Positions 3,661 through 29,600 of a stretch of DNA of 62,920 nucleotides are shown piece by piece (within the stretch, counting starts at the first letter, position 1; each line of letters opens with the position of its first letter). The stretch lies in IMG/VR virus record IMGVR_UViG_3300031576_000042, positions 1 to 62,920 of that record. One strand, given 5' to 3'. Both the position numbers and the translations under genes were made by a program. Source of the stretch: a virus (lineage: Duplodnaviria; Caudoviricetes). Below the pieces are notes generated by a model that was given only the letters and a program-made list of their open reading frames with translations, did not search any database and was not told the origin of the DNA.

Positions 3661-4108
3661 TATATGGGATAAGCGTTATGATGCTCTCGAACAGCTTAAT
3701 AAGCAGCTTATATGTCCAGACGACTTTAGCCAAATTGACAAGGCCATAAAAGTAGCTCGTCATGTTGAATCAACAGCTACTTACTATCACACTAAATTCT
3801 CACGTCTTCTCGCTGAAGCAAAGTCCAAGCTAAGCACAGTCAAGCTTATTTTCACAACTAAACTTTCTCAGCTTATATCTAACACTGAGTTTTATCCTGA
3901 AGAGTCAGAGCGCTTACGAAAAACCTATGCTGAGACAAAGCTGATCGAAGAGTTTTCTGCGGTAGAAAGAGCTAAGGATGAAGTGAGTAGCTGCCAGTTG
4001 TTTATCAAAGCCTTAGAGAGAGTTCTTGGGAATGCCAAGCATACCCGTGAAGATATTGGAAGAAAGATCAAATTAACCGAAGTTCAGAACGACATAAAGG
4101 AGCTTTAA
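3647..4108 (+). CDS. Coiled-coil protein, possibly UvsY-like recombination mediator
   Basis: All-helical, adjacent to SSB-like gene and near recA; function inferred from context. Confidence 0.35.
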   Translation: MQDPNIWDKRYDALEQLNKQLICPDDFSQIDKAIKVARHVESTATYYHTKFSRLLAEAKSKLSTVKLIFTTKLSQLISNTEFYPEESERLRKTYAETKLIEEFSAVERAKDEVSSCQLFIKALERVLGNAKHTREDIGRKIKLTEVQNDIKEL

Positions 4109-4836
4109 TGGCCGAAACTTTTGAATGGGATGATCCAAAGCTTGCTACACACAGCTCAAAAATGCTGCTTTGGTATCGCTGTGTAATCGGTAGTGTCGAT
4201 ATCCTTAGAGTAATTTCTAAATGCTATTCTGTCTTTAAGCACACTTATAAAGATAATGGTAGGTTCATGACCTCAATGTGCAGCATGGAGCAGTCAAAGT
4301 CCTGCCCATTCTGCGATCGTGCCAATAGTCTTCGAGATCATCAGCGTACCACGACCTACGCTGTATCTGTTCTGCATTTGACACGAAAGCCTGGCTCGGA
4401 GCAGCAACGGTTTGTAGGTAAGCTTCTTGGTTGGCGTTTCGGTGATGAGAAGAAGCGCGAGCTGATTGAGATTCATGAGATTACCAAAGGTCGTGGTGGT
4501 CTCACAAAGGTTGATCTTCGTATTGCTCTCAAGGGTGCCGACGCCGAGAGTGAGAAGTTCCAGAAGACTTCTATCAAGACGCTTGACTCGAATGTTGTTG
4601 CTGCTCTTTCTCCAGAGCTTCAAAAACAACTTGCTGTTATTGTACAGAACAAGGAAGAGATTGAAAAGATCAAGCGCTTGTACTGCCCACTTTTTGAGGA
4701 TTTGATGAAGTTCGTCAAGGAAGACGAAGCAACTACTTCATTCAACCCTGACGAATTTAACAATATGGGTGCTCCTGCTGTTGAGGCTGGCAACCCGTTC
4801 GTTGGAGGTGAAGATCCGCTCGCTTCCTTAGTATAG
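4108..4836 (+). CDS. Putative single-stranded DNA-binding protein (T4 gp32-like)
   Basis: H..C..CPFC Zn motif, acidic C-terminal tail (EDEATTSFNPDEF...EDPL), replication-module context. Confidence 0.55.
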   Translation: MAETFEWDDPKLATHSSKMLLWYRCVIGSVDILRVISKCYSVFKHTYKDNGRFMTSMCSMEQSKSCPFCDRANSLRDHQRTTTYAVSVLHLTRKPGSEQQRFVGKLLGWRFGDEKKRELIEIHEITKGRGGLTKVDLRIALKGADAESEKFQKTSIKTLDSNVVAALSPELQKQLAVIVQNKEEIEKIKRLYCPLFEDLMKFVKEDEATTSFNPDEFNNMGAPAVEAGNPFVGGEDPLASLV

Positions 4837-25217: not shown

Positions 25218-25496
25218 ATGCTACCAAGTCAGTTATTGAGTAGCCCTAAAAGGTGGACTCAGGGTTGCTCTGCTCGGGATAAGAGAGGCATGGTAGTATC
25301 TCCGTGCGATCGGGATGTGGTTTGTTGGTGCGTTATGGGAGCTATCCGTAAGTGTGCTGTAGGTGATAAACAGTTGAATGAGTGGATGTGCAAGTTAATT
25401 GACGTGATTGGTTTAGTAGATATTACAATTTGGAATGATGATCCCAGTACGATATTCAAAGAAGTAAAAGCTGCGCTTAAAAAGGCTGGTATTTAA
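25218..25496 (+). CDS. DUF6197-like hypothetical protein
   Basis: WTQG..ARD..G..V.P....VCWCVMGAI...WND pattern; SD AGGAG. Confidence 0.55.
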   Translation: MLPSQLLSSPKRWTQGCSARDKRGMVVSPCDRDVVCWCVMGAIRKCAVGDKQLNEWMCKLIDVIGLVDITIWNDDPSTIFKEVKAALKKAGI

Positions 25497-25527: not shown

Positions 25528-26265
25528 ATGCGTCTCAGTCAAATTATTGCAGTCGAGAAGGATTTGAAGTCCAAAGCTACTGCGGAGGTCACTGCCCTCC
25601 ATAGGGCGAGCAGCAAGCCTGAGCTGTTCGAGGGTTTTACCAAAACTTACGTGCCAAAAGATGAGAACAGTGAGTCCTACCCTCCTGAACGTAAACTGGT
25701 ACAGATGCATGTTGACGAGTCTATGCAGAAGCTTAGGAGTATTCTAAAAGAAGTCTTGGATATTGAGGCTGTCAAGGATCTTGCCAATACTCAAGCAGTT
25801 GCTGAGATAGTTGTTGATGGAAAGCCAGTACTTGGCTATCCTATACCCACTACGCTTCTTCTCTTTCTTGAGAAACAAATGAATGATATCCGCACGTTCG
25901 TTGAAGCACTTCCTGTTCTCGATCCTTCGGAGAATTGGACGTATGATCCTAACACTGGTGGATATAGGGCTGATCCTACTACCACTCATCGTACCAAGAA
26001 GACTGCGAAAGCGATTGTCAAGTATCCGGCTACGGAACAGCACCCGGCGCAGACGGAAATGATTACCGAGGATGTTACTGTTGGCCATTGGAGCCAGATA
26101 CGTCATTCTGGTGCCATGGCTTTGGATAGTAAGGTAAAGATTTTGGAGCGGGTCAACAAGCTTGCTCGTGCAATCAAGGAAGCACGGGCTGAAGCCAATT
26201 CAAAGGAAGTTTCTCAGGAAATGAAGCCAGGGAGTACGATTCTCAGCTACATTTTCTCTGAATAA
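25528..26265 (+). CDS. Conserved uncharacterised 245-aa protein, putative partner of downstream structured RNA
   Basis: SD AGAGGA; motifs RLSQIIAVEK, TYVPKDE, LLFLEKQ, LPVLDP, ATEQHPAQ, SGA, AIKEARAEAN resemble (from memory) a widespread bacterial/phage family of unknown function. Confidence 0.85.
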   Translation: MRLSQIIAVEKDLKSKATAEVTALHRASSKPELFEGFTKTYVPKDENSESYPPERKLVQMHVDESMQKLRSILKEVLDIEAVKDLANTQAVAEIVVDGKPVLGYPIPTTLLLFLEKQMNDIRTFVEALPVLDPSENWTYDPNTGGYRADPTTTHRTKKTAKAIVKYPATEQHPAQTEMITEDVTVGHWSQIRHSGAMALDSKVKILERVNKLARAIKEARAEANSKEVSQEMKPGSTILSYIFSE

Positions 26266-26590
26266 CAGAACACGACAAGCTTAGCTTTACTTTCAAGCTG
26301 ATAAATCCTACATGTAGGTTCGACTCCTACCCCCCTCGCCATGTGAGGGGGTGGCGGAATGGCATACGCAGTAGCCGGTAATACGGTTGTCGTAGGGATA
26401 AAGGTTAGCCTGTTCGTGTAAGCTTAGCATTGCGATGGTCAGTATCTCTACCGCTGTGCCATATAAACACGAGACACTGGTTCGAATCCAGTCAGACCCG
26501 CCATGTGGGCCTGTAGCTTAGTGGAAGAGCGCGTGTTCTTAGAGCTTAAAACACAGCTTAAACGTCGTTACTGACAGAAGTCATCGCCAA
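26266..26590 (+). ncRNA. Large structured ncRNA with two circularly permuted tRNA-like modules (Y-RNA-like topology)
   Basis: T-arms GTAGG-TTCGACT-CCTAC (26314-30) and ACTGG-TTCGAAT-CCAGT (26476-92), each followed by 3' acceptor strand, GCCATGT, 5' acceptor strand and D-arm; nested long-range helices; no ORF; terminator follows. Confidence 0.85.
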
Positions 26591-26593
26591 GGG

Positions 26594-26630
26594 GGGAGGG
26601 GAGTGAGGCTATATCTCCCCTCCCTTTTTT
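26594..26630 (+). terminator. Rho-independent terminator closing the protein+ncRNA unit
   Basis: GGGAGGGGAG...CTCCCCTCCC + TTTTTT. Confidence 0.85.
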
Positions 26631-29600
26631 AATAAGCCACTTATATTTCAACCATGAGCTACAAGGGAAAGACCACGGAAGAGATTCTGATCTGCTGCTT
26701 GGACAAGCTGTTCCAGCACAGCAATTGTATTGCGAAGCGCCAGCCCTGCAAGGCCGTCCCCATGGCGTTGCATAACGTCGAGGGCGCGTATTGGGACTGG
26801 CTCGAGGAGCGAGAAGCGAAGTGTCGCATGACCGACAAGAAGGACAGGTTGAAGGCAAGGGGCAAGCCATGAGTCACGCACGTACTTGTGCGATATCTCC
26901 TCTCCCTTTTTAAATAAGTTGTTTATATTCCGTTACAACTAGTTTTCAAAGTAGAGAGATTCATATGAGTAGAATTCACAAGCTAAGCACTGAGGGTAAA
27001 AGACAGGCGTTGCGAGAGGCTGAGGCTGAGTACATGCGTCTTATTTACGCAATCGAAGCTTTGGATGTGAACAGTCCTAAATCTACGAGCCACTATGCTG
27101 CGCTAATGGATTTGAGCACCAAGGCGCTTGGGGAGTGCTTTAGATTGCGATCTTTAGACTGATTGAAAGACAAAAGTGAGTTGTGTACGTGCTATTAGCG
27201 ACACTGTAACATACGGCAGTAACCCTTCGCCATGGCAACGCTGCTGGCGCTGCAAGGAGCTGGCATGGGAAGAGCGTAGTCAGGCGGCTGTACACTGGCG
27301 AGAGTGCGTTTTGTGCGTTCGGTGCGCGAAGGCAATGGGTCTTTTCAGGAAGGAGGAAGTGTCGTGACAGACGGAGGTTTTAAGAATCTTGTCGAGGCGG
27401 CGAGGGAAGTCTCAGAGACGATTGCCGAGGACCGAGAGGACGTGATGTTTCTTGGTTCTCTCGAGCGGCTCTCTCGCGCCCTTTCGACTGCACGTCCCGA
27501 CGCCGTGGCGGCGCTGGTTCAAACGATCAAGGACATGGGGCTCGAGCACGAGCTTGGCGATCGGCCTGGAACGCAAGACTGCGGTACGCGGTCAGGCAAC
27601 CCGTGCTCGTGCCTAATCGGAAAGCTTAAGGAGATCATCGCGACACTCGAGGGAATGGAGGCGAAGTGAGCGAGCACGAAGACGAGTTCGATAGAAACCC
27701 GGAGATTCAAGAGGCGGAGTTCGACAGGATAGAACGAGAGATCGAGAAGCGTATGGGCATCCCCCTTACCGACGACGAGCTGGCGAGTCTCGAGGAGGTG
27801 AAGCTCCTGCGATTCCAGCGGCATGTGTTTGAGACTGGTTGCCAGACTGCAATGGCCGAGCGCGACCAGCTACGCCTGTGCGTGGCGGCGCTGGTCGATG
27901 CGCTCAAGTACGTTTCTGGCTATTTGGAATCAGCGCGTAAGCGCTTTGGGGATGACGAGGGGCTGTATGCTCGTGAAGCGGTTTCTGTCGTCTTGTCCTC
28001 GCTCGCCTCGGTGGGCGAGGGGAAAGCGCCAACGGAGCGCGAGGCTATCAGTGTCAAGATTGTTGAGAAGTGCTTTCGTTGTTTTGGTACCGGCAAGGGA
28101 TGGTTTGAGCAGTCAGAGCAACGCTGTCAAGCTTGCGATGGGAAGGGTTGGACCAAGGAGTTTGAGGAGCCATGAATTTTGGACAAATCCAAATCGCACA
28201 GGGTCACTATATCAAGGATGGCCGGTGCGTCCTGTGCCATGAGTTAGAGGCCAAACTTGAACCTGGGCAGTGTCACGGCGGAATGGCCACCATCACGCGC
28301 CTCGAGGCGGAAAACGCCGAGCTGCACACCTGGAAGAAGCAGGTCGAGGAGGACGGCGAGTCGCCACGCAATGCTACTATTGTGCGGCTCGAGGCGGACA
28401 ATGCCGCGCTCTGTCTTGAGCTTGCTCACCAACTCGAGGATAGCGTGAGGCAAGCGTGCCGCACAGACAAGGATGGCGAGTACGATTCCTGCGCCATCTC
28501 GACTTGGGCGGACGCGATGCTGCGGCTTGCCGAGCTGGGACGCTTCACGGTGGACATTCACCATGGCCGGCGTGTCATTGGGAGGTTCGTCGAGGCGAGG
28601 GGAGACCAAGCATGATTGCATTTCACGGAGACCCGAAGATCAAAGCTTTTTATCTTAACCGGATTCGGCAGCATTGTCTTGCAGATGAGCTTGTAAAAGG
28701 TCAGTACTGGAAAAATGGTCGCGGCTGTGGAATCGGCTGCACGATTCACAGCGGCAGTCATGTGGCCTATGAGACGGATCTTGGCATCCCGCAGATTCTC
28801 GCACGGCTCGAGGACGTGACTTTTGAACGACTGGAGAATGGTGAAGCTATGCTGTGGCCAGAAAGATTCCTGGCCACAATCCCCGTTGGCGCCGACCTGT
28901 CACTCGTCTGGCCGCGCTACGCTGTGTGGATGCTTGGCGACACCACGCATGGTGTTCTGCGCCACGCAAAGACGGAGCGCATGAGGTTGGGCATCCGGGG
29001 AGTGCTCGATCTGTACCAAGAGTGGGTGGACCTCGGTATGAAGCCAGATGCCAAACGCTTTAGCGCCGCCTACGACGCCTACGCCGCCTACGCCACCGCC
29101 GACGCATGTAGGGCATGGTGGCTGGCGTCTGCGGCGAAGTTGCTCGAGTTGCTTGGCCATGCGCCCGTGGTCAGCGAGGCGAAGCCATCAGAGGCTGGCG
29201 CGATGTTGGCGGGCAAGGTCGATGTGTATCTTGGTGGTAAGCCGAAGGGAGACGAGGCGTGAAGCTCAGGAAGAAACCAGACATCAAGGTCGAGGTGATT
29301 CGACTCATTAATCACAAGCGGTTCTTCAGGCTTGAGAGGACAACGCTGCCGGGTCACCGTTGGTCCGTCACCATCGACAAGGGTCAATGTACTTTGTACG
29401 GCGAGTCCCTGCGACAGGCAGTAGAGACCGCGTTCGAGGAGCTTGAAGGGAAAAGCGCATGAACATCTCCGACCTCACGCCCGATCAGAGGCTGTGCCTG
29501 CTCGTGCGGCACCCGAAGTTTACAGGGCTCGAAAAGCGTGGTGTTAGGCCGCCAATAGCCGGCCCGTTTTGGCGGATCTATTTTGATGGGCTCCACAGCG

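Follow-up and report, generated by a model that had tools for sequence, protein, structure and literature searches.

Two permuted tRNA-like modules in one covarying RNA, coupled to DUF7873 in phages and bacteria

The gene for a two-piece transfer-messenger RNA (tmRNA) encodes a T-arm, a 3' acceptor strand with CCA, a short spacer and the 5' acceptor strand, in that order, and excision of the spacer leaves a base-paired RNA of two pieces. Permuted tRNA genes of Cyanidioschyzon merolae place the 3' half before the 5' half, joined across the acceptor end, and give ordinary tRNAs after circularisation. The 3' tRNA-like structures of plant RNA viruses, which are terminal, single and unpermuted and belong to viruses of eukaryotes, are recognised by RNase P, the CCA-adding enzyme and synthetases. 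A permuted tRNA-like domain is also found in the bacterial Y RNA YrlA. In the parts of their study used here, Chen et al. (2014; PMC4201824) report that the YrlA of Mycobacterium smegmatis, with an acceptor stem of 7 base pairs (bp), is cut by RNase P in vitro and occurs in vivo as two halves, one with an added CCA, and that the Ro60-binding helix of YrlA carries a conserved GNCGAA(N0-1)G motif. Here we describe an RNA with two permuted tRNA-like modules, hereafter the twin RNA, and its neighbouring DUF7873 protein gene. Both lie in the window, a viral contig of 62,920 bases from IMG/VR (record IMGVR_UViG_3300031576_000042; estimated completeness 65%), which was analysed over its whole length.

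An RNA gene coupled to DUF7873

In the window, the twin RNA spans about 312 nucleotides (nt) of the forward strand (26276-26587), from the 5' strand of an outer helix to the 3' strand of helix P1; these ends are approximate and were taken from family alignments and a covariance model, R1. The region has a fold z-score of -4.11, and the median length in the family is about 336 nt. The RNA starts about 10 nt 3' of the stop codon of its constant neighbour, a forward-strand gene (25528-26265) whose 245-residue product matches DUF7873 (Pfam PF25283) over its full length (E 9.1e-89). An initial annotation, made from the window sequence, had proposed a structured RNA with two permuted tRNA-like modules at this place. 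All of the sequence elements it listed for both modules were found where it had put them, and the modules recur in the family described here.

DUF7873 has at least 892 relatives at E<=1e-5. Searching viral contigs with the single protein returned nothing; an alignment-based search succeeded, giving 289 relatives, and 80 of these loci were taken on. By tblastn, relatives were found in 46 phage records (phages of Arthrobacter, Rhodococcus, Gordonia, Pseudanabaena, Microcoleus, Rhizobium and Klebsiella/Serratia), and a DNA similarity search of phage records with the RNA region gave no match. An alignment search over 185,579 species genomes confirmed at least 573 stretches with DUF7873, from which 80 loci were taken for comparison with R1.

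As the initial annotation had suggested, we collected the regions 3' of DUF7873 homologues. In 90 loci, 800 nt 3' of the gene were scanned for a strict permuted-module pattern (T-loop, 5-bp T-stem with one mismatch allowed, 7/7 acceptor pairs, D-stem). Two modules were present in 65 loci, one in 18 and none in 7. The reverse complement yielded two modules in 0, one in 6 and none in 84, and coding sequence of the same loci contained none in any of the 90. The permuted-module pattern is far beyond chance.

R1 was built from 18 seed sequences, including the window, and has 176 positions and 40 pairs that cover helices P1-P4 and, in module 2, the T-arm, acceptor stem and D-arm; module 1 lies outside its seed. 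At the threshold used for source counts (E<=1e-8), R1 matched 85 of 91 viral sources (the window and loci L001-L090). All 85 matches were 3' of DUF7873 on the same strand, and all but two, both at contig ends, covered the whole model. Six sources were below the threshold (L007, L008, L010, L038, L039 and L067); at the E<=0.01 used for partial matches, L008 and L010 matched R1 over module 2 and L067 gave one short match (model positions 56-112). The window, itself a seed member, scored 138.6 bits over the whole model, and its module 1 also matched model positions 56-112 (39.1 bits, E 1.4e-6). Among the bacterial genome loci, 78 of 80 matched, 76 of them over the whole model. In all five genomes or records searched throughout there was exactly one full-length copy of R1, at the DUF7873 locus.

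Ten phage records were compared by their annotation. In all ten, DUF7873 is followed by about 110-1160 nt without an annotated gene or RNA, the exceptions inside the RNA region being open reading frames (ORFs) of Gordonia phage Ronaldo and a doubtful tRNA of Klebsiella phage vB_KpM_FBKp24. Inspected by eye, four of these stretches contained the same permuted modules and shared motifs such as ATTGC and CTTAAACGT. The initial annotation's label of a phage noncoding RNA class proved too narrow: the same protein-RNA pair occurs in the bacterial genome stretches, whose carriers include Streptomyces, Frankia, Catenulispora, Abditibacteriota, Myxococcota, Acidobacteriota and Planctomycetota. On the chromosome of Candidatus Uabimicrobium amorphum the pair lies outside a prophage, with an amino-acid permease gene on one side and Ser/Thr kinase genes on the other.

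The 3' half of the RNA covaries. In an alignment of 75 distinct R1 matches, fitted to the R1 structure and so biased toward it, 93.1% of cells were paired, compared to 52.5% after column shuffling and 37-45% with slid partners. Double-sided changes were seen in 40/40 pairs, and the covariation score was 0.979 against 0.222. An alignment of the seed made by MAFFT only already displayed P2-P4. Covariation was present in every helix of the 3' half, and since the pairing margin is very large and all pairs show double changes, the four helices that the initial annotation had drawn around module 2 are correct. A reading in which the element consists of decayed or rearranged tRNA gene fragments without function would fit the lack of a tRNA call by ARAGORN or Rfam. 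It is effectively excluded by the matches in 163 of 171 loci, from phages and several bacterial phyla, by their fixed position and by the compensatory changes in every 3'-half helix. Conserved, covarying and present in a single copy, the twin RNA gene encodes two tRNA-shaped heads and is coupled to DUF7873.

The distance between gene and RNA bears on whether the RNA acts on its own. The gap from coding sequence to RNA has a median of 46 nt and is <=60 nt in 47 of 78 loci; in the window, a scan found no promoter-like site between the two, and a terminator follows only 3' of the RNA. This arrangement would suit a cis-acting 3' element of the DUF7873 mRNA that stabilises the message or controls its expression, like a viral tRNA-like 3' end, and has no role of its own. 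In L093, however, the RNA lies on the strand opposite DUF7873, about 0.9 kb downstream (L093:5646-5817, the only such locus of 171), in L103 it is about 1.5 kb from the gene, and in 11 of the 85 viral loci more than 400 nt separate the end of the DUF7873 match from the start of the R1 match. These cases point to action in trans. In addition, the FBKp24 record annotates a promoter (3703-3734) between gene and RNA, and some 320 nt with two full tRNA mimics exceed what stabilising a message needs. We consider a purely cis-acting element improbable.

Two phage records carry further features in the RNA region. In that of FBKp24 (MW394391.1), a feature annotated as 'tRNA-OTHER / tRNA-Sup-TTA' (L010:3919-3998) overlaps module 2, whose T-arm starts at 3971, and probably represents part of the twin RNA under a wrong label. 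In Ronaldo, an additional T-arm-like element with a 6/7 acceptor-like stem (L003:3894-3960) lies 5' of the two regular modules and may represent a third, degenerate module. The same record annotates two small ORFs (3720-3833 and 3980-4189) within the RNA region.

Scaffold and tRNA-like modules

The 3' half comprises helices P1-P4 and module 2, all on the forward strand. The 5' strands of P1 (GCGATG) and P2 (GTCAGTA) occupy 26432-26444, and their 3' partners CATCGC and TACTGAC share 26552-26587 with the 3' strand of P3 (CACAGC), whose 5' strand GCTGTG is at 26453-26458. P4, the analogue of an anticodon stem, pairs AACACG (26466-26471) with CGTGTT (26532-26537). P1 and P2 were 80.8-95.3% paired, with every pair double-changed, P3 97.4% and P4 88.8%. 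In module 2, the T-arm (26476-26492; 98.7% paired) leads into the acceptor stem CAGACCC/GGGCCTG (26493-26513; six of seven pairs in the window, helix 99.4% paired), which is closed by the loop G-CCA-TGT (26500-26506) and followed by positions 8-9 and the D-arm, TAGCTTAGTGGAAGAGC (26514-26530; 93.7% paired).

Unpaired positions of this half are also conserved. ATCRA lies between P2 and P3, and opposite it TTAAACG(Y)CG (TTAAACG at 26558-26564 in the window). Directly 3' of P4 the 75 sequences read U (68), N, A (74), R (71), A, and slightly further on U (74), R, A (73). The corresponding CTTAGAG of the window (26538-26544) resembles an anticodon loop or U-turn. From its sequence, U-N-A-R-A may be read as anticodon-loop positions 33-37 with N-A-R as the 'anticodon', and may equally be a plain U-turn.

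In module 1, the T-arm (26314-26330) is 100% paired, with covariation, and the 7-bp acceptor stem (26331-26351; CCCCCTC at 26331-26337 with GAGGGGG at 26345-26351) is 99.4% paired, with double changes in 7/7 pairs, and is closed by G-CCA-TGT (26338-26344). Positions 8-9 and the D-arm, TGGCGGAATGGCATACGC, follow at 26352-26369. In a MAFFT alignment of 22 sequences, fitted to no structure, 99-100% of cells were paired in the T-arm, acceptor stem and D-stem, again with covariation. In both modules of the window, G3 pairs with C70, in line with the initial annotation, which had noted that neither has a G3:U70 pair.

The scaffold around module 1 is less firmly established. A constrained minimum free energy (MFE) fold of the window pairs the 5' strand of the outer helix Pa, CAAGCT (26276-26281), with AGC(A)TTG (26426-26432); this 3' strand is also the conserved motif AGCATTG, and its G26432 is common to the start of P1. 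In the 22-sequence alignment, the outer helix and its continuation (Pa/Pb) were 72.6% paired and an inner CTGA/TCAG helix 77.3%, and the 5'-half structure as a whole 86.3%, compared to 71.0% when shuffled and 32-48% when slid. We regard the support for the 5' scaffold as moderate.

The initial annotation had instead closed module 1 with ACGACAA/TTGTCGT (26272-26278/26387-26393) and CTAC/GTAG. Although these strands are complementary in the window, neither helix was confirmed: their columns, in a poorly aligned part of the 22-sequence alignment, were 40.0% paired compared to 31-39% for slid partners, and forcing the helices gave -50.4 kcal/mol against -61.1 kcal/mol for the fold with only the tRNA core fixed, a cost of 10.7 kcal/mol. 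In the core-fixed fold, TCCTAC (26306-26311) pairs with GTAGGG (26392-26397) as a connector like a variable arm, and 26371-26390 forms a hairpin, GTAGCCG-GTAATA-CGGTTGT, at the place of the anticodon arm. Without constraints, the MFE fold calculated for the region missed the tRNA modules and was not used for structure.

Across the family, the longest contiguous connector stem reached 6 bp or more in 39/64 modules and 202/640 controls, which was too noisy, and we used a test of architecture instead. A class-II-like arrangement, in which the D-arm is directly followed by a hairpin and next by a strand complementary to the segment 0-4 nt 5' of the T-arm, was found in 20 of 34 modules with TGG or TGC D-arms. 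Controls gave 25/680 with shuffled downstream sequence and 114/680 with swapped upstream segments. Among modules with other D-arms, mostly TAGCCC, the arrangement was seen in 3/34; where a stem was found in these, it often had canonical geometry, starting one base past the D-arm and leaving a 5-nt variable loop. Most likely, a helix that resembles a variable arm connects module 1 of the window to the scaffold, and the anticodon arm is retained as a capped hairpin. The modules had been called 'anticodon-less', which is half right: module 1 retains this hairpin in the place of an anticodon arm, and the stem of module 2 runs on into the anticodon-loop-like U-N-A-R-A.

Module 1 is a copy of tRNA-Leu, as judged by its D-arm. 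We compared D-arms with those of 210 tRNAs called by ARAGORN in the fetched loci, and each of the three main types of module 1 D-arm matched Leu best among the isotypes. The 18-mer of the window is identical (18/18) to the D-arm of a long-variable-arm tRNA-Leu of Gordonia phage Phendrix, and the TAGCCC type is 95% identical to that of a 75-nt tRNA-Leu(TAG) of the same phage, which lacks a long variable arm. Phendrix (L005) and other loci have such 75-nt tRNA-Leu genes beside ordinary long-arm ones, and the two D-arm types of module 1 mirror both. The Leu matches imply that the hairpin-bearing modules correspond to class II tRNA-Leu, and the simplest reading of these sequences is that the connector would be the variable arm and the hairpin the anticodon arm. 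The hairpin loops vary, with UUCG and GNRA tetraloops among them, so there is no conserved anticodon in them. For the D-arm of module 2, which is generic, five isotypes match equally well, at 88%.

Downstream of the RNA, a terminator-like hairpin with a strong fold is followed by a T-run (26590-26632), as the initial annotation had said; a simple terminator scan missed it because its loop is 11 nt long. A C/T-rich tract and T-run, CTCCTCTCCCTTTTT, closes the next downstream gene (26890-26912) and resembles the 3' arm and T-run of the RNA terminator, CTCCCCTCCCTTTTTT; from this resemblance, the two may represent a shared terminator type of the phage. The palindrome CTNAG (or CTNAA) recurs 6-7 times along the RNA, in the window at 26280-26284, 26421-26425 and 26538-26542 among others, and at the same places in relatives. 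Copies lie in the outer helices, on either strand, and also 3' of P4, where they are unpaired. The recurrence may be due to symmetry of the helices, to a protein-binding site that is repeated, or to copies that pair with one another over long distances. Upstream of DUF7873, a gene at 25218-25496 encodes a DUF6197 protein (E 2.5e-10), and the small genes 3' of the RNA have no family matches.

Acceptor loops, protein partner and possible function

The acceptor loops were compared in the 75 distinct RNAs, each module being found by pattern in 68. N-CCA directly followed the stem in 27/68 loops of module 1 and 35/68 of module 2, where chance would give about 1 in 64. In module 2 the base before the 5' acceptor strand was T in 46/68. 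The modules encode CCA in 17/22 cases where flanking tRNA genes mostly do so and in 15/38 otherwise (Fisher p=0.007, kinship ignored). Several actinophages keep ACCA in module 1, and none of their tRNA genes encode CCA. The initial annotation had stressed that both modules retain CCA, which holds for the two loops of the window and does not hold as a family trait.

The two loops tend to be alike when they belong to the same RNA. Their similarity was 0.36 within RNAs compared to 0.11 between them, a value reached in 0/2000 permutations, and loop lengths were correlated (0.61). The identical GCCAUGU loop of the two window modules, recognised in the initial annotation, is an extreme case of this family trend.

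Both window modules also have features of RNase P substrates: a 7-bp acceptor stem stacked on a 5-bp T-stem, G+1, U-1, and RCCA after the stem. From these features, the N-CCA and T counts and the link to CCA in flanking tRNA genes, the heads are probably processed by RNase P or other enzymes that act on tRNA. A precedent for such processing is the YrlA of M. smegmatis, which RNase P cleaves and to which CCA is added.

If the heads are cut, they might also be charged. In bacteria A73 is a leucine identity base, and leucyl-tRNA synthetase (LeuRS) requires A73 and the tRNA core, not the anticodon. On this alternative, the twin RNA would be a precursor of split, chargeable tRNA-like molecules, in which RNase P cleavage and 3' trimming are followed by aminoacylation of one or both heads (head 1 by LeuRS) for use by DUF7873 or on the ribosome. 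The tRNA-Leu-type D-arm of module 1, an A discriminator in 52/68 module 1 sequences and the CCA of both window loops would all fit. In the portion of Chen et al. consulted (PMC4201824), aminoacylation is raised as a possibility for the cleaved M. smegmatis YrlA. The discriminator of the window is G, however, 41/68 module 1 loops lack CCA, some acceptor stems are capped by a hairpin, and no aminoacyl-transferase-like fold was seen for DUF7873 in searches of the PDB and BFVD. A chargeable precursor is thus a doubtful reading.

The AlphaFold model of DUF7873 is confident (pLDDT 89). Foldseek found no match for it in the PDB or BFVD at E<=0.001 (TM about 0.15 for the top-ranked matches), a profile search of the PDB gave nothing below E 0.25, i.e. 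no sequence relative among solved structures, and a search of the ESM Atlas returned DUF7873 clusters only. No longer or fused forms were found, which is weak evidence. A two-copy model scored an ipSAE of 0.58 compared to 0.00 for the best control, its contacts agreed by at least 98% between runs, and its pLDDT was at least 84. The model thereby passes the mark set for such predictions, which 20/30 solved pairs and 1/23 single chains reach. DUF7873 is probably a dimer, going by this model. The homodimer model and the likeness of the two loops within an RNA point to a partner shared by both heads.

We put the probability at roughly 55% that the twin RNA is a trans-acting structured RNA gene of about 320 nt that forms a two-part cassette with DUF7873 and whose heads are handled by the tRNA machinery. 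On this reading, the RNA would be a pair of long helical arms, irregular in form and abutting at their ends, each tipped by a tRNA-shaped head with a T-arm, a looped 7-bp acceptor stem and a D-arm. Head 1 would copy tRNA-Leu, in the window of the long-variable-arm kind, and head 2 would be a class-I-type copy whose anticodon-like stem runs into the scaffold. DUF7873, probably as a dimer, would bind the RNA or act on it, and the host tRNA machinery would recognise both heads. In many members, RNase P cleavage ahead of the 5' acceptor strand, together with trimming of the 3' strand to CCA or addition of CCA to it, would give a base-paired particle of several pieces with two tRNA-like ends. The purpose we favour is a ribonucleoprotein (RNP) that would recruit, sense or titrate tRNA-binding factors, following a logic like that of Ro60 and Y RNA.

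Several points weigh against this reading. A search for sequencing runs that carry the region listed two DNA runs, both from one cave-metagenome sample, and no RNA run. CCA is absent from about half of the loops, and in 3/68 modules 1 and 4/68 modules 2 the acceptor stem is prolonged by a hairpin without a free end, so cleavage to CCA ends is not a universal requirement. Gene conversion or a common base composition could account for the likeness of the loops. The 5' scaffold, with pairing of 72.6-77.3%, has the moderate support described above, and the covariation of the 3' half was measured in an alignment that favours the structure it was fitted to. DUF7873 is mildly acidic (pI 6.3; family median 6.33), fold and profile searches revealed neither a structural relative nor a domain recognisable as RNA-binding or catalytic, and its binding to the RNA is inferred from the adjacency of the two genes.

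A more far-reaching proposal is that a dimer of DUF7873, as a new fold, and an RNA with two CCA ends after RNase P cleavage, one of them leucine-type, form an RNP that is charged or read as a pair of tRNAs. It would sense or control LeuRS or tRNA-directed immunity, or carry out aminoacyl chemistry off the ribosome. We regard this as speculative and rather unlikely.

Genomic context suggests another possibility, in which the heads and U-N-A-R-A act as a decoy or sponge for a tRNA-targeting toxin, an immune nuclease or an enzyme that modifies acceptor ends, protecting phage tRNAs or buffering a bacterial toxin. The cassette lies within phage tRNA gene clusters in 4 of the 10 phage records (Mimi, NiceHouse, Phendrix and RHph_Y65). 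It also behaves as a self-contained, mobile unit of two genes: in 35 Streptomyces loci the block of gene and RNA is common to all and the flanks differ. In one Streptomyces locus, that of Streptomyces atroolivaceus, the flanking genes (L140:3002-3916 and L140:5121-6272) match two PADLOC candidates for phage defence, PDC-M45B at E 6e-29, which is a DUF488 protein, and PDC-S30 at E 6e-112. Against a decoy, DUF7873 itself has no PADLOC match, a second Streptomyces locus (L149) has neither PADLOC neighbours nor a context like that of L140, and a simple decoy would need neither a conserved, covarying scaffold of about 190 nt nor a dedicated protein. To our knowledge, no target toxin is known. We see a decoy as possible and, on balance, unlikely.

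A NERD-domain gene also lies near the L140 cassette, and the kinase genes beside the cassette of Uabimicrobium match PD-T4-6, which may merely reflect a shared kinase domain. Taken from gene content, a defence-island context is a lead only. ARAGORN found 0 tRNA genes in the whole 62.9-kb contig, unlike most phages that carry the cassette.

Whatever its function, RNAs so large, strongly covarying and widespread have rarely stayed undescribed; carriers of this one extend from phages of Actinobacteria, Cyanobacteria, Rhizobium and Klebsiella to the bacterial groups named above. It gives a first functional lead for the DUF7873 family. The carriers include culturable Streptomyces strains and SEA-PHAGES actinophages, which makes the proposals testable, and at least one phage record currently labels a part of the twin RNA as a suppressor tRNA.

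Comparison with known RNAs

At gathering scores, Rfam 15 gave no family in the window or in 29 related loci, and ARAGORN found no tRNA or tmRNA in the window, so these two of the checks proposed in the initial annotation returned no described family. A contiguous cloverleaf with an anticodon arm, as in tRNA (RF00005), was detected by neither. In a loose Rfam search of 701 nt, the best match was YrlA (RF02553; 23.2 bits, E 0.019, gathering score 69), limited to module 2 (26468-26536) and to model positions 23-86. The runner-up was cyano_tmRNA (RF01851) with 15.8 bits against a gathering score of 70.

The partial match and the fit of the module order to the model raise the question of whether the twin RNA is a divergent YrlA that works with a Ro60/Rsr protein encoded elsewhere. 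The score is far below the gathering score, however, and the YrlA Ro60-binding motif GNCGAA(N)G was not found in 26262-26600. No TROVE/Ro60 gene was found in the contig, as the initial annotation had noted; TROVE/Ro60 was absent from three of five carrier genomes or records and lay 336-436 kb from the RNA in the other two. Moreover, one carrier, the Abditibacteriaceae genome G004, has a separate weak match to the full YrlA model (L171:2334-2477; 29.8 bits, below the gathering score) about 0.4 kb from its TROVE/Ro60 gene. That match adjoins a cluster of at least 12 tRNA genes, and the DUF7873 RNA is 435 kb away. A divergent YrlA is very improbable, and the initial view of an RNA that resembles the tRNA-like domain of YrlA and yet is not YrlA has held up.

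We found no description of the twin RNA or of DUF7873 in the literature as far as it was covered, the supplements of a catalogue of 10,006 viral RNA candidates (PMC10690425) being outside that scope. By the membership tests run on its sequence, the twin RNA is distinct from YrlA, tmRNA and tRNA.

With two-piece tmRNA it shares the permuted order, and it differs in having full D-arms and no G3:U70 pair; ARAGORN found no tmRNA and RF01851 stayed below its gathering score, no dedicated search for a tag frame having been made. In contrast to the permuted tRNA genes of C. merolae, each module has a conserved scaffold of about 60-90 nt on its anticodon side and would not yield a complete anticodon arm. 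Plant viral tRNA-like structures are alike in mimicking tRNA 3' of a coding RNA.

Bacterial noncoding RNAs that imitate the L shape of tRNA, as far as the descriptions drawn on go, likewise mimic tRNA and have regulatory or unknown functions. These use different connectivity and tertiary contacts, whereas the twin RNA keeps canonical T-loop, D-loop and acceptor sequences, in two copies. The Rfam searches matched none of these families, a negative that presumes their inclusion in Rfam 15.

YrlA is a close relation. Both have the permuted order of T-arm, loop-closed acceptor stem and D-arm, with the anticodon-side stem continuing into the rest of the RNA, both are encoded beside the gene of a partner protein, and both occur in bacteria and phages; the M. 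smegmatis YrlA shares the 7-bp acceptor stem, with RNase P cleavage and CCA. The twin RNA differs in having two tRNA-like domains in about 320 nt, DUF7873 as its neighbour and no Ro-binding helix motif, as well as scaffold motifs of its own (AGCATTG, ATCRA, TTAAACG and the CTNAG repeats) and a tRNA-Leu-like module 1. The permuted tRNA-like module of Y RNAs is thus used outside the Ro60 system, in duplicate and copying tRNA-Leu. Apparently, the twin RNA belongs to a known kind, that of tRNA-mimic RNAs with a permuted tRNA-like domain, and is new in its two modules, its protein partner and its scaffold.

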